Shown piece by piece: positions 60,645-62,361 of a stretch of 64,000 nt of DNA (the first letter of the stretch is position 1; each line of letters begins with the position of its first letter). The stretch is from the sequence record OZ336095.1. One strand, written 5' to 3'. The position numbers were made by a program, and so were the translations under genes. Source of the DNA: a phage. The notes beneath the pieces were generated by a model. That model made no database searches, was not told where the DNA came from, and saw nothing but the letters and a program-made list of their open reading frames with translations.

Positions 60645-60722
60645 GGGAGATTGACGGTAATTGGTAAACCTACCATCCTTAGAAGTTGGTGTTTGAGGGT
60701 TCGAATCCCTTGTCTCCTACCA
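60645..60722 (+). tRNA. tRNA with Leu-type anticodon TAG but short variable arm (compact form)
   Basis: Acceptor gggagat/gtctcct, A73, anticodon loop cttagaa, 5-nt variable loop, T-loop ttcgaat, CCA; D-stem weak. Confidence 0.45.
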
Positions 60723-60729
60723 AATTAAT

Positions 60730-60805
60730 GCAGGTGTAGCAAAATGGTTATGCGGCTGACTCTTAATCAGTAAGACGATGGGTTCAATTCCCTCCACCTG
60801 TACCA
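60730..60805 (+). tRNA. tRNA-Lys (anticodon CTT)
   Basis: Anticodon stem-loop ggctga-ctcttaa-tcagt; T-loop ttcaatt; CCA. Confidence 0.55.
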
Positions 60806-60811
60806 GACATT

Positions 60812-60887
60812 GGGGATGTAGTTTACATGGTTAAAACATAAGTTTTGCAAACTTAAGTACAGGGTTCAATTCCCTGCTTCTCCACCA
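60812..60887 (+). tRNA. tRNA-Ala (anticodon TGC)
   Basis: D-arm gttt/aaac; anticodon stem-loop taagt-tttgcaa-actta; T-arm caggg-ttcaatt-ccctg; CCA. Confidence 0.7.
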
Positions 60888-60893
60888 ATTAGT

Positions 60894-60968
60894 GCATCCA
60901 TAGTTTAAACGGGAAAATTACAGTCTTCCAAACTGAGGTTGAGGGTTCGATTCCCTCTGGATGCTCCA
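60894..60968 (+). tRNA. tRNA-Gly (anticodon TCC)
   Basis: Perfect acceptor gcatcca/tggatgc; anticodon loop cttccaa; T-arm gaggg-ttcgatt-ccctc; CCA. Confidence 0.7.
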
Positions 60969-60975
60969 AATTAAT

Positions 60976-61052
60976 GCTGCTTTCGTATAATTGGCTATTA
61001 CACATCCCTTGTAAGGATGGAAATGCGGGTTCGAGTCCTGTGAGCAGCACCA
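60976..61052 (+). tRNA. tRNA-Thr (anticodon TGT)
   Basis: Anticodon stem-loop catcc-cttgtaa-ggatg; T-loop ttcgagt; CCA. Confidence 0.65.
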
Positions 61053-61147
61053 ATTCAGAGGTCAAGTGAAAGACCGCTGGTGTCAACTGAAGACCGTAAC
61101 AAATTCCACGGAGTTGAGTTAGCGGCACAACTTCAGACCTCTTTCAC

Positions 61148-61222
61148 ACTCGCTTAGTTTATATGGTAAAACATCACCCTTACAAGATGAAGAAAAAGGT
61201 TCAAGTCCTTTAGTGAGTACCA
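61148..61222 (+). tRNA. tRNA-Val (anticodon TAC)
   Basis: Anticodon loop cttacaa (one stem mismatch); T-arm aaagg-ttcaagt-ccttt; CCA. Confidence 0.55.
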
Positions 61223-61223
61223 T

Positions 61224-61301
61224 GTTCCAGTATCCCAATTGGCAGAGGATGCAAGCTCAAACCTTGTATTAGTGACGGTTCGAATCCGTCTTGGAACACC
61301 A
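61224..61301 (+). tRNA. tRNA with Leu-type anticodon CAA but short variable arm (compact form)
   Basis: Acceptor gttccag/ttggaac, A73, D-loop aattggcag, anticodon stem-loop gcaag-ctcaaac-cttgt, 6-nt variable loop, T-loop ttcgaat, CCA. Confidence 0.5.
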
Positions 61302-61306
61302 ATTTT

Positions 61307-61382
61307 GCAGGATTAGTTCAAATGGATAGAGCAACAGTCTACGAAGCTGTTAATAGGGGTTCGAATCCCTTATCCTGCGCCA
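61307..61382 (+). tRNA. tRNA-Arg (anticodon ACG)
   Basis: Perfect acceptor gcaggat/atcctgc; D-arm gttc/gagc; anticodon stem-loop acagt-ctacgaa-gctgt; T-loop ttcgaat; CCA. Confidence 0.75.
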
Positions 61383-61399
61383 GATAAAAAGGTGATACT

Positions 61400-61642
61400 A
61401 TGCAAACATTAACAGTAGTTGAACATGAAAACTGTGAGAATATTGAGTTTGTCAGGGTCATTGGTGTTGAACACCACATTTTCTTAAAAGTAGGGTACTT
61501 ATGTGACCCCGCTAGAGTAGAAAGATTTATACGTGATTGTTTTGGTGGTAGACAGCTAAAGAGTGTTATTTTTGAGACAGTTTTACCAGAAGGTTTAGAA
61601 ACGAATAATAACATTTATCTCCTTACAAGGATTAGACGATGA
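61400..61642 (+). CDS. Hypothetical protein, 80 aa (within tRNA cluster)
   Basis: ORF track; AAAGGTG RBS-like sequence upstream. Confidence 0.4.
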   Translation: MQTLTVVEHENCENIEFVRVIGVEHHIFLKVGYLCDPARVERFIRDCFGGRQLKSVIFETVLPEGLETNNNIYLLTRIRR

Positions 61643-62196
61643 GATATTTAAAATATGCTTCATGGATTTTCCTAGCTTTGCTAGAACCATTAGCAGCAAC
61701 CTTAGCAGTTATCTTAGCACCTTTCGTAGTTCCATTTTACAGTGAGAAGAAAGGCCACTTACCTTTCGGATTTAGATGGATGGAGACATATGACAACCCA
61801 ATTGATGGTGACGAAGGTCATATCGAACGATGGGCTAAGATTAGAAAGATTGGTAAGCTGGGTGTCTACATGCAGAGAGTCGGATGGCTCTGGAGAAACA
61901 AAGCTTATAACTTCTCTTACCATGTATTAGGAAGAGATGTAAAAGATGTTACTAAGTGGAAAGGTAATATCAACGTAAGTTCTGACCCTGAAGATAATCA
62001 GACAGGTTATCTCCTAATGTGGAACAGTAATGCTTGGGGATTATTCGCTTTTATCCCATCAATTAAAGTCTTTGGTAAACAGTTTTACTGGAGAATTTAT
62101 ATTGGATGGAAACTAAAAAGTGTTGTCCCAGAAGAAAGAGCATTCTCAAGGGAAAGAGTTATGTTGGCATTCTTTATTCATCCACTGAGAAAGTAA
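61639..62196 (+). CDS. Putative membrane protein, 185 aa (within tRNA cluster)
   Basis: N-terminal hydrophobic region WIFLALLEPLAATLAVILAPFVVPF. Confidence 0.45.
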   Translation: MRYLKYASWIFLALLEPLAATLAVILAPFVVPFYSEKKGHLPFGFRWMETYDNPIDGDEGHIERWAKIRKIGKLGVYMQRVGWLWRNKAYNFSYHVLGRDVKDVTKWKGNINVSSDPEDNQTGYLLMWNSNAWGLFAFIPSIKVFGKQFYWRIYIGWKLKSVVPEERAFSRERVMLAFFIHPLRK

Positions 62197-62204
62197 AGAT
62201 TTAA

Positions 62205-62280
62205 AGGGGATTAGTTTACAAGGTTAAAACCTCGGTCTTTGAAATCGAAGAAGTTGGTTCAATTCCAACATCCCCCGCCA
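62205..62280 (+). tRNA. tRNA-Gln (anticodon TTG)
   Basis: Anticodon stem-loop tcggt-ctttgaa-atcga; T-arm gttgg-ttcaatt-ccaac; CCA; A1-C72 mismatch. Confidence 0.6.
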
Positions 62281-62282
62281 AT

Positions 62283-62361
62283 ACTCCATTACTCCAATTG
62301 GCAGAGAGGCCAGACTTAAAATCTGTGTTATGTATCGGTTCGAATCCGATATGGAGTACCA
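62283..62361 (+). tRNA. tRNA with Leu-type anticodon TAA but short variable arm (compact form)
   Basis: Acceptor actccat/atggagt, A73, D-loop aattggcag, anticodon loop cttaaaa, 7-nt variable loop, T-arm atcgg-ttcgaat-ccgat, CCA; paralogous in architecture to 61224..61301. Confidence 0.5.

Follow-up and report, generated by a model that had tools for sequence, protein, structure and literature searches.

In textbooks and in recent primary work, bacterial tRNA-Leu is classed as a class II tRNA. The window studied here, a stretch of 64,000 nucleotides from sequence record OZ336095.1, belongs to a Felixounavirus (Felix O1-like), which infects E. coli and Salmonella, and it holds three tRNA genes that have leucine anticodons (UAG, CAA and UAA) and no long variable arm. 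The locus thus raises the question of what these genes encode. An earlier note, made from the sequence alone, had offered three answers: unusual compact tRNA-Leu species, tRNAs charged with another amino acid (recoding), or wrong hand-folds. [quoted passage not shown]

All three genes lie on the plus strand and were called as tRNA-Leu by ARAGORN, in exact agreement with the coordinates and anticodons of the earlier note: tRNA-Leu(UAG) at 60645..60722, tRNA-Leu(CAA) at 61224..61301 and tRNA-Leu(UAA) at 62283..62361. Their matches to Rfam RF00005 scored 40.0 bits (E = 5.5e-6; the lowest of the three), 44.0 bits (E = 4.1e-7) and 48.3 bits (E = 2.7e-8), respectively, and all exceeded the gathering score of 29 bits. 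The sizes, loops and discriminator base that had been read by hand were reproduced by cloverleaf folds. Including the encoded CCA, the tRNAs measure 78 nt (UAG), 78 nt (CAA) and 79 nt (UAA); the anticodon loops are canonical, with 7 nt and U33 (CTTAGAA, CTCAAAC and CTTAAAA, in the same order); and the discriminator is A73 in each case. The variable loops form no stem and read TGTTT (5 nt), ATTAGT (6 nt) and GTTATGT (7 nt), the ARAGORN count being one lower wherever a sixth anticodon-stem pair is added. With 5, 6 and 7 nt, all three lack a class II arm (10 nt or more, including a stem) and have the make-up of type I, i.e., a leucine anticodon and a variable loop of 4-7 nt in an otherwise complete cloverleaf. 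The broken stems, absent arms and lack of conservation that mark a pseudogene or fragment were not seen in these genes, and the suspicion that the hand-folds were wrong was dispelled by ARAGORN, Rfam and the covariation within the wider family (see below).

tRNA-Leu(CAA) has a 3-bp D-stem, an 11-nt D-loop (CAAUUGGCAGA) and U48. tRNA-Leu(UAA) has the same D-arm, U48 and, in its anticodon loop CUUAAAA, A36A37A38. Because the D-loop sequence CAATTGGCAGA is common to both and their overall identity is 74%, it is reasonable to regard the two genes as paralogs, as had been proposed. tRNA-Leu(UAG) carries G1.U72 at its acceptor end, and its D-arm is irregular, with one additional nucleotide and, according to the register chosen, a C.U or C.C mismatch; its anticodon stem contains a U30.U40 mismatch. 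Because of the imperfect D-arm and the U.U mismatch, this tRNA may be a weaker substrate than the others. Its anticodon stem is of the type found in T5-like phages and PVP-SE1, unlike that of close Felixounavirus relatives.

The three genes are part of a cluster of 26 tRNA genes (58411..63556, plus strand; ARAGORN and Rfam). CCA is encoded in no fewer than 24 of these genes, each isotype has the discriminator base that is usual for it in E. coli, and the gene order is also found in Felixounavirus and Mooglevirus records. As the earlier note had observed, tRNA-Ser and tRNA-Tyr of the cluster keep their long variable arms: tRNA-Tyr(GUA) (88 nt; 58904..58991), tRNA-Ser(UGA) (90 nt; 60300..60389) and tRNA-Ser(GCU) (93 nt; 63384..63476), all on the plus strand, have arms of 15-21 nt according to ARAGORN and cloverleaf folds. 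Consensus scans yielded a candidate sigma-70-like promoter (TTGACA-17-TATAGT, 11 of 12 matches; 59753..59781, plus strand) upstream of the tRNA block with the Leu genes, a second candidate promoter before the first tRNA (58355-58384) and, past the last tRNA (Cys), a terminator-like hairpin followed by a T-run (63719..63736, plus strand), which is a consensus match only. The promoter and terminator scans gave no excess over shuffled sequences (15 versus 13.5 for promoters); what counts in favour of the best sites is their position alone, which is suggestive. In the record of phage ASO1A, a promoter is annotated at the place equivalent to 59753..59781.

Regarding the amino acid that is accepted, leucine identity in E. 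coli is reported to comprise A73, A15:U48, G18G19, A20a and the D/T tertiary pairs (PMC9976931), in line with the role that the earlier note had given to A73. The premise that a long arm belongs to the make-up of a bacterial tRNA-Leu has to be corrected: E. coli LeuRS reportedly does not use the arm as an identity element, and armless variants are still charged (PMC9976931). All three phage tRNAs contain A73, A15:U48, G18G19, A20a, the 3-bp D-stem and the 11-nt D-loop, the register being irregular in tRNA-Leu(UAG). [quoted passage not shown] The D-arms resemble those of E. coli leuW, leuX and leuZ, with a 3-bp stem and an 11-nt loop of the form N-A-A-U-U-G-G-Y-A-R-A. Taken together, a 3-bp D-stem, an 11-nt D-loop, A73 and U48 are almost specific for leucine, since this set occurred in 227 of the 317 Leu tRNAs of 207 IMG/VR loci versus 6 of about 1,450 other tRNAs. 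Among short viral Leu tRNAs (n = 153), A73 is present in 99%, A15/U48 in 98% and A20a in 149, and these frequencies equal those of long viral and bacterial Leu tRNAs; 30 short Leu tRNAs from outside the search pattern have A73, A15 and U48 throughout (100% each). For the Sf14 homologues, the Leu isotype model of tRNAscan-SE scored highest for all three tRNAs (67.4, 49.1 and 60.2; PMC12482277). Neither G3:U70 nor G-1 was found in the three phage tRNA-Leu. Of the three answers, that of an unusual compact tRNA-Leu is the one favored by this leucine-specific body and by the Mooglevirus homologues, which tRNAscan-SE calls as tRNA-Leu with Leu as the top isotype score.

SerRS and bacterial TyrRS depend on the long arm, and this would account for its retention in the Ser and Tyr tRNAs of the phage. 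Leu alone would have been able to lose the arm because the arm is reportedly not an identity element for E. coli LeuRS. According to the proposed mechanism, the three tRNA-Leu would be transcribed with the rest of the cluster and then processed by host enzymes, CCA being pre-encoded, and leucine would be loaded by the host LeuRS. An enzyme of the E. coli type would read A73 and the shape of the D/T elbow, not the arm, and the absence of the arm would be tolerated because E. coli-type bacterial LeuRS makes no use of it. The UAA anticodon is predicted to read UUA and UUG, CAA to read UUG, and UAG to read CUA and other CUN codons. A laboratory-made biochemical precedent is provided by armless minimal E. 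coli tRNA-Leu, which is described in PMC9976931 as charged and edited in vitro by E. coli LeuRS as long as A73 and the D/T tertiary pairs are intact (Larkin et al. 2002; SELEX, Asahara et al. 1998); the phage genes, in contrast, are natural, conserved and widespread. A point against the mechanism is that, in a crystal structure, the C-terminal domain of E. coli LeuRS touches arm nucleotides 47f-47i (PMC6614811).

The same three anticodons are found in the host, in leuW (UAG), leuX (CAA) and leuZ (UAA) of E. coli. The D-arm layout of these tRNAs is that of the phage tRNAs (3-bp stem, 11-nt loop AAAU(U/C)GGUAGA), and U8, A14, A15:U48, G18G19, A20a and A73, as well as G1.U72 in some, are common to both. 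The host tRNAs are, however, 85-87 nt long with a stem-loop arm of 13-15 nt, whereas the phage tRNAs have 5-7 unpaired nucleotides at this place, and the overall identity is only 58-69%. The UAG anticodon loops also differ, being UUUAGGU with G37 in leuW and CUUAGAA with A37 in the phage. A host origin or host copy of the phage tRNA-Leu was considered and rejected, as blastn of the UAG and UAA tRNAs against 5,426 complete E. coli genomes gave no match. No synthetase family match was obtained among the ten large window ORFs scanned, and no synthetase annotation is present in the 45 kb of phage ASO1A that were examined. Since the host tRNAs leuW, leuX and leuZ are long-arm only and no phage synthetase was seen, type I and type II tRNA-Leu are predicted to coexist during infection.

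Streptomyces coelicolor provides a cellular counterpart, a short-arm type I tRNA-Leu(CAA) that occurs in the bacterial cytoplasm beside long-arm tRNA-Leu and a single LeuRS, described in 2019 as the first case of one LeuRS for both types in one cell (PMC6614811). Its gene is chromosomal, whereas the phage genes are viral. It depends on a domain of the Streptomyces LeuRS that is specialised and leucine-specific, and A73 is reportedly no identity element for it (PMC6614811), whereas the identity set of the E. coli type is retained in the phage tRNAs. E. coli LeuRS, described by the authors as type II-only, did not charge the S. coelicolor tRNA-Leu(CAA), which was the sole bacterial type I tRNA-Leu tested (PMC6614811), and this speaks against charging of the phage tRNAs by that enzyme. 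The tRNA-Leu(UUR) of human and animal mitochondria is likewise of type I; it has a leucine anticodon, lacks the long arm and is identified by A73 and A14 (PMC9976931). Its compartment, an organelle, has a separate LeuRS, and its structure is relaxed and partly unfolded, in contrast to the canonical G18G19/T-loop elbow of the phage tRNAs.

A homologue from a phage of another family is tRNAL1 of the siphovirus BF23 (Demerecviridae; NC_042564, 3881-3957), a 77-nt short-arm tRNA-Leu(UAG) that is 83% identical to the UAG tRNA of the window and has the same U30.U40 mismatch. According to its GenBank note, a change of the anticodon to CUA turned tRNAL1 into an effective amber suppressor; the inserted amino acid is not named there. 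Among T5-like phages, the short form is confined to BF23-type relatives. In T5, which belongs to the same genus as BF23 (Tequintavirus), the corresponding position is taken by a class II tRNA-Leu(UAG) that is 85 nt long and unrelated, and the classical T5 biochemistry was accordingly rejected as proof of leucine charging.

The short-arm tRNA-Leu is a general phage trait, common in phages and rare in bacteria. Besides the Felixounavirus genomes, it occurs in Mooglevirus, Kolesnikvirus, BF23-type T5-like phages and PVP-SE1, and a scan of IMG/VR added at least 157 further cases in the 120 contigs listed. With a single D-loop-anchored pattern used on both sides, and with bacterial genes counted irrespective of prophage location, short forms made up 32% of the viral versus 4.5% of the bacterial tRNA-Leu among the first 120 matches listed per collection. 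The bacterial short-arm matches came from Gordonia, Herbiconiux, and metagenome-assembled genomes (MAGs) of Actinomycetales, Planctomycetota and Ahniellaceae. At closer range, all three Leu genes are nearly invariant over hundreds of Felixounavirus genomes, the Val-Leu-Arg segment with tRNA-Leu(CAA) shows at least 99% identity in 164 phage records, and in Mooglevirus and Kolesnikvirus the three genes are kept in position and size. The homologues in Mooglevirus records, of 78-79 nt, are annotated as tRNA-Leu by tRNAscan-SE.

One origin for all short-arm Leu tRNAs was considered and found to be unsupported. The nearest neighbour was a long Leu tRNA for 25 of the 135 short ones, one short viral copy has D and anticodon arms identical to those of a long bacterial copy, and mean identity was about equal between short copies (0.582) and between short and long copies (0.576). 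Judged by these comparisons, loss of the arm looks recurrent in phage tRNA arrays. Short forms concentrate in large arrays (median 10.5 tRNAs per locus versus 3), and position 37 is A in 52 of 76 short NAG-type tRNAs versus G in 69 of 72 bacterial ones.

These features could also be taken to mean that loss of the arm was adaptive, the short form either escaping some factor, of the host or of a competitor, that detects the long arm or the anticodon loop of class II tRNA-Leu (for example, a tRNA nuclease or nucleotidyltransferase toxin) or bringing a kinetic gain in processing or charging. Such a reading is compatible with normal leucine acceptors and competes only over the reason for the loss. 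It would account for the excess of short forms in viruses (32% versus 4.5% of the pattern-matched tRNA-Leu among the matches listed), for their enrichment in large arrays, for the apparent recurrence and for anticodon loops that diverge from those of the host at position 37. We know of no enterobacterial defence that hits tRNA-Leu through its arm, and none was found in the literature searched. Changes in phage tRNA loops have been proposed as nuclease evasion (PMC10264068; PMC12482277), and toxins that prefer long-arm tRNAs exist, MenT3 being an example (PMC11541572). However, about 70% of the viral tRNA-Leu matches are still long, and the Ser and Tyr arms are kept in the same phages, which is better explained by dispensability of the Leu arm for charging than by a general threat to arms. 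Overall, an adaptive loss is considered rather unlikely. It is distinctly unlikely that the loss was both recurrent and selected in virulent large-array phages in such a way that their tRNA-Leu became invisible to a factor of the host or of a rival phage that reads the class II arm, either by itself or combined with the G37-type anticodon loop of cellular tRNA-Leu; if so, translation of phage Leu codons would continue while the host tRNA-Leu are under attack.

The codons UUA, UUG and CUA are served by minor host isoacceptors. In the phage genome, which has a G+C content of 38.7%, TTA, TTG and CTA jointly account for 47.5% of the Leu codons, and from codon counts only we infer a codon-supply role for the three tRNA-Leu. 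Were the tRNAs to accept a different amino acid, as the earlier note had envisaged, these codons would be recoded or ambiguous. The absence of the class II arm could be cited for this, as could the failure of E. coli LeuRS on the Streptomyces type I tRNA-Leu (PMC6614811) and the isotype scores of the Sf14 UAG tRNA, in which Ile2 (65.7) and Lys (63.4) come near Leu (67.4) (PMC12482277). In alignments of phage NrdA, NrdB and NrdD with their E. coli orthologues, however, leucine stands opposite TTA in 44%, TTG in 39% and CTA in 44% of cases (background 8.9%), a rate that matches those of CTT (39%), CTC (40%) and CTG (31%), and recoding was rejected because of this agreement. The anticodons are sense Leu anticodons, and not those of a suppressor or recoding tRNA. 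To our knowledge, anticodons containing A35 fit no set of an anticodon-reading E. coli synthetase. The presence of the Leu-specific D-arm, A15:U48, A20a and A73, and the absence of G3:U70 and G-1, likewise speak against another amino acid, and clean recoding would be impossible because the host tRNA-Leu still read UUA, UUG and CUA. Charging with an amino acid other than leucine is thus very improbable.

It is hardly more credible that the genes are relics in decay, or tRNA-like sequences called by mistake, and yield no working tRNA. Few class I tRNAs of the cluster score as low in Rfam as these three (40-48 bits), and the stem mismatches of the UAG copy would fit decay. Against this stand the near-invariance of the genes over hundreds of Felixounavirus genomes, their constant position and size in Mooglevirus and Kolesnikvirus, the retention of CCA and A73, the function of the BF23 homologue as a suppressor (GenBank note) and strong compensatory covariation in the wider family. 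In 78 diverse short Leu tRNAs, 97.8% of the stem cells are paired, versus 56% in shuffles and 34-46% when the partners are slid; compensatory double changes occur at 20 of 20 pairs, and the covariation score is 1.09 versus 0.25. A non-translational role, in which the RNAs would be a decoy for host tRNA-targeting enzymes, a primer or a regulator and not a ribosomal adaptor, has nothing specific in its favour, even though phage tRNA clusters hold other stable RNAs and conserved spacer, and it is highly improbable in view of the canonical 7-nt anticodon loops with U33, the fit of the anticodons to heavily used phage codons and the conservation of all synthetase and T-loop elements for translation.

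No description of short-arm tRNA-Leu in phages was found in the full-text literature, subscription content and the older Russian work on T5 and BF23 lying mostly outside the search; within the literature found, the term 'type I tRNALeu' is used only in the Streptomyces paper (PMC6614811). If the functional short-arm tRNA-Leu proposed here are charged by the ordinary enterobacterial LeuRS, one enzyme would handle both types each time a cell is infected by a Felix O1-like or BF23-like phage or by one of many others. This would confirm in nature, and on a large scale, that bacterial LeuRS can do without the arm and that SerRS and TyrRS cannot, and it would make available hundreds of natural minimal tRNA-Leu scaffolds for studies of synthetase recognition and for tRNA engineering. 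It also raises the question of whether the arm was shed by drift or to evade tRNA-targeting defences. With respect to annotation, a phage tRNA-Leu of 75-79 nt is normal and does not indicate an error.

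Three tRNA genes with leucine anticodons, tRNA-Leu(UAG) at 60645-60722, tRNA-Leu(CAA) at 61224-61301 and tRNA-Leu(UAA) at 62283-62361 on the + strand, were located by both ARAGORN and the Rfam tRNA model exactly where the earlier note had placed them. Its description of canonical 7-nt anticodon loops (CUUAGAA, CUCAAAC and CUUAAAA, respectively), lengths of 78, 78 and 79 nt, variable loops of only 5, 6 and 7 nt and A73 in all three genes was borne out. The lengths take in an encoded CCA, and the Rfam scores (40.0, 44.0 and 48.3 bits) exceed the gathering score of 29 bits. The two genes said to have a common D-loop are those for CAA and UAA, which both read CAAUUGGCAGA and are 74% identical. 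Long arms (15-21 nt) are indeed present, as had been noted, in tRNA-Tyr (88 nt) and in both tRNA-Ser genes (90 and 93 nt) of the same cluster. The least regular of the three Leu genes is Leu(UAG), whose D-arm contains one additional nucleotide and whose anticodon stem has a U30.U40 mismatch. Its acceptor and T arms are common to close Felixounavirus relatives (compared with positions 2551-2629 of locus L001 and 22351-22429 of locus L005), while its D-loop and anticodon stem, including the conserved U30.U40 mismatch, are of the type found in phages BF23 and PVP-SE1; from these segments the gene looks like a mosaic.

Judged from sequence, the three phage genes are leucine tRNAs in all respects but the arm. 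They have in common with E. coli leuW, leuX and leuZ, the long-arm genes with matching anticodons, an unusual D-arm (3-bp stem and 11-nt loop N-A-A-U-U-G-G-Y-A-R-A), A15 with U48, and A73. According to a review by Giege and Eriani (PMC9976931), recognition by E. coli LeuRS depends on A73, the A15:U48 Levitt pair, G18G19, A20a and the D/T tertiary pairs but on neither the anticodon nor the long arm, and variants that lack the arm continue to be charged and edited. When all 2,172 ARAGORN tRNAs from every fetched locus were parsed, a 3-bp D-stem, an 11-nt D-loop, A73 and U48 were found together in 227 of the 317 Leu tRNAs from viruses versus 6 of approximately 1,450 tRNAs of other isotypes. For Shigella phage Sf14, the tRNAscan-SE Leu isotype model ranked top for all three Leu tRNAs (67.4, 49.1 and 60.2), although 13 other tRNAs of this phage were 'inconsistent' (PMC12482277). 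Sf14 is a Mooglevirus with the tRNA order of the window, and in its sister phage Sf15 the Leu genes annotated by tRNAscan-SE are 78, 78 and 79 nt long and occupy the same positions.

Distant blastn homologues of the window's Leu(UAG) were found in T5-like phages, PVP-SE1 and SSE121. According to ARAGORN, Leu(UAG) is 77 nt long in BF23 and PVP-SE1, the latter having an 86-nt Leu(UAA) besides, and Leu(CAA), Leu(AAG) and Leu(UAA) of Erwinia phage FIfi106 all measure 77-78 nt. A short-spacing search pattern (Leu D-loop, Leu anticodon and T-loop) matched at least 120 IMG/VR contigs, whose loci contain at least 157 Leu tRNAs of 80 nt or less by ARAGORN (UAG 68, CAA 50, UAA 29, GAG 4, AAG 3, CAG 3); in the same loci, and with a single exception for each isotype, the lengths are 81-97 nt for Ser and 79-94 nt for Tyr. 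When 78 short copies chosen to be mutually diverse, the window's three among them, were aligned, they fitted a short cloverleaf: 97.8% of the stem cells are paired (versus 56% when shuffled and 34-46% with slid partners), double changes occur at 20 of 20 pairs, and the covariation score is 1.09 versus 0.25. With a free-spacing pattern, the matches listed (120 contigs each) comprised 41 short and 89 long Leu tRNAs in viruses and 5 short and 105 long in GTDB species representatives, proportions that are rough, being based on a single D-loop motif and on the listed matches only. The median number of tRNAs per locus is 10.5 with short Leu versus 3 in long-only loci, which places the short form mainly in phages with large tRNA arrays. 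The sequences point to short-arm tRNA-Leu as a general phage trait. Of six bacterial loci that contain a short copy, three belong to Actinomycetota, the phylum in which chromosomal type I tRNA-Leu was already known. Bacterial short-arm copies with the same D-loop occur in Gordonia (L234), Herbiconiux (L266), an Actinomycetales MAG (L328), a Planctomycetota MAG (L278, three in tandem) and an Ahniellaceae MAG (L319, two).

Type I tRNA-Leu had been described from mitochondria (PMC9976931) and Streptomyces (PMC6614811), and hundreds of records already label the phage genes tRNA-Leu. A full-text literature search yielded no description of phage tRNA-Leu commonly lacking the arm yet retaining the bacterial identity set.

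Regarding the origin of the short form, 135 short copies were compared after removal of the variable region and anticodon. The nearest neighbor was short for 110 and long for 25; the D and anticodon arms of one short viral tRNA are identical to those of a Muribaculaceae long tRNA, and mean identities are about equal (short-short 0.582, short-long 0.576). Between tRNA-Ser2 and tRNA-Ala, T5 has an 85-nt class II Leu(UAG) (L338, 9628-9712), whereas the equivalent position of BF23 (L002, 3881-3957) holds a 77-nt short-arm Leu(UAG) of unrelated sequence, a replacement of an entire tRNA gene inside one genus, Tequintavirus. Because of the long nearest neighbors, the near-equal identities and this T5/BF23 difference, arm loss or replacement appears to be recurrent. 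On an economical reading, leucine alone among the three bacterial class II isotypes would have a synthetase that can do without the arm, and rapidly evolving phage arrays would thereby tolerate arm deletions. A less likely, adaptive reading, in which arm loss would be an escape from a factor recognizing cellular tRNA-Leu, is hinted at by the enrichment of the short form in phages and by a parallel G37 to A37 shift in copies with NAG anticodons, A37 being present in 52 of 76 short and 20 of 78 long copies from viruses and in 3 of 72 from bacteria. The bacterial long-arm NAG copies have G37, the m1G37 site, in 69 of 72 cases. G1.U72 is likewise far commoner in viral Leu tRNAs (61 of 153 short, 49 of 164 long) than among the bacterial ones sampled (9 of 109).

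A note in the BF23 GenBank record states that changing the anticodon to CUA turns its tRNA into an 'effective amber suppressor' (the amino acid is not named), which shows that in E. coli the short-arm BF23 homologue becomes charged and works on the ribosome. E. coli LeuRS failed to charge the type I tRNA-Leu(CAA) of Streptomyces, and the authors of that study regard the enzyme as specific for type II (PMC6614811). Weighing this failure against the minimal-substrate work (PMC9976931) and the retained full E. coli identity set, we consider it probable that the three phage tRNAs are leucylated by the host LeuRS.

Charging with another amino acid, the recoding alternative of the earlier note, is not supported, since TTA, TTG and CTA align with leucine as CTT, CTC and CTG do, G3:U70 is absent from all three tRNAs, and the long variable arm that SerRS requires is missing. 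The alignments were of phage NrdA, NrdB and NrdD to their E. coli orthologues (25-35% identity), scoring which E. coli residue faced each Leu codon of the phage: leucine stood opposite 44% of TTA, 39% of TTG and 44% of CTA (L/I/V/M/F in 67-83%), as compared with CTT 39%, CTC 40%, CTG 31% and a background of 8.9%. Across 37 phage ORFs (150 aa or longer), leucine is encoded by TTA 22%, TTG 15%, CTT 30%, CTC 6%, CTA 10% and CTG 16%, so the three anticodons serve codons heavily used by the phage (genome G+C 38.7%); in a small host sample of three E. coli nrd genes, CTG makes up 77%. The host would read the codons of these anticodons with minor isoacceptors. From codon use, the role of the three tRNAs would be the one usually argued, codon supply.

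The 26-gene tRNA cluster (58411-63556, + strand; ARAGORN, confirmed by the Rfam tRNA model) lies in a region (58300-63600) that is 94-98% identical to Felixounavirus genomes, among them FSL SP-012, vB_EcoM_ASO1A and wV8, which are Felix O1-like myoviruses with E. coli, Salmonella and Shigella as hosts. Genes in other parts of the window code for DNA polymerase A, a primase-helicase, NrdA, NrdB, NrdD and a NAPRTase-family enzyme. Ten large window ORFs gave no Pfam match to an aminoacyl-tRNA synthetase family, and none is annotated in the 45 kb examined of the relative ASO1A. The 3' CCA is encoded in at least 24 of the 26 genes; in our own parse, tRNA-Ser(UGA) ends in GCC and the end of tRNA-Phe is ambiguous. 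The discriminators agree with those of the corresponding E. coli isotypes (for example, G73 for Asp, Asn, Gln, Glu and Ser(UGA); U73 for Gly and Cys; C73 for His), and by these bases the entire set appears tuned to host synthetases.

Directly 3' of the cluster's best sigma-70-like promoter (59753-59781) lies a non-tRNA spacer of about 200 nt (59783-59984, + strand), which is kept in Mooglevirus Sf15 and is 79% identical (E 1e-20) in the distant Erwinia phage FIfi106. RNAalifold applied to the three sequences predicts 60 pairs, seven of them with compensatory changes, and the spacer may belong with the small stable RNAs, such as those labelled 'RNA I/III/IV' in the tRNA regions of T5 and BF23. 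A tRNA-like element at 60204-60287 (+ strand) combines a 7-bp acceptor stem and a T-arm with G73 and an encoded CCA; the 9-nt loop of its anticodon arm, CCUCCAAAA, includes the Trp anticodon CCA. The element has an oversized D region, was not called by ARAGORN and gave only a weak tRNA-Sec match in Rfam (22 bits), whereas tRNA-Trp(CCA) of the Erwinia relative is normal.
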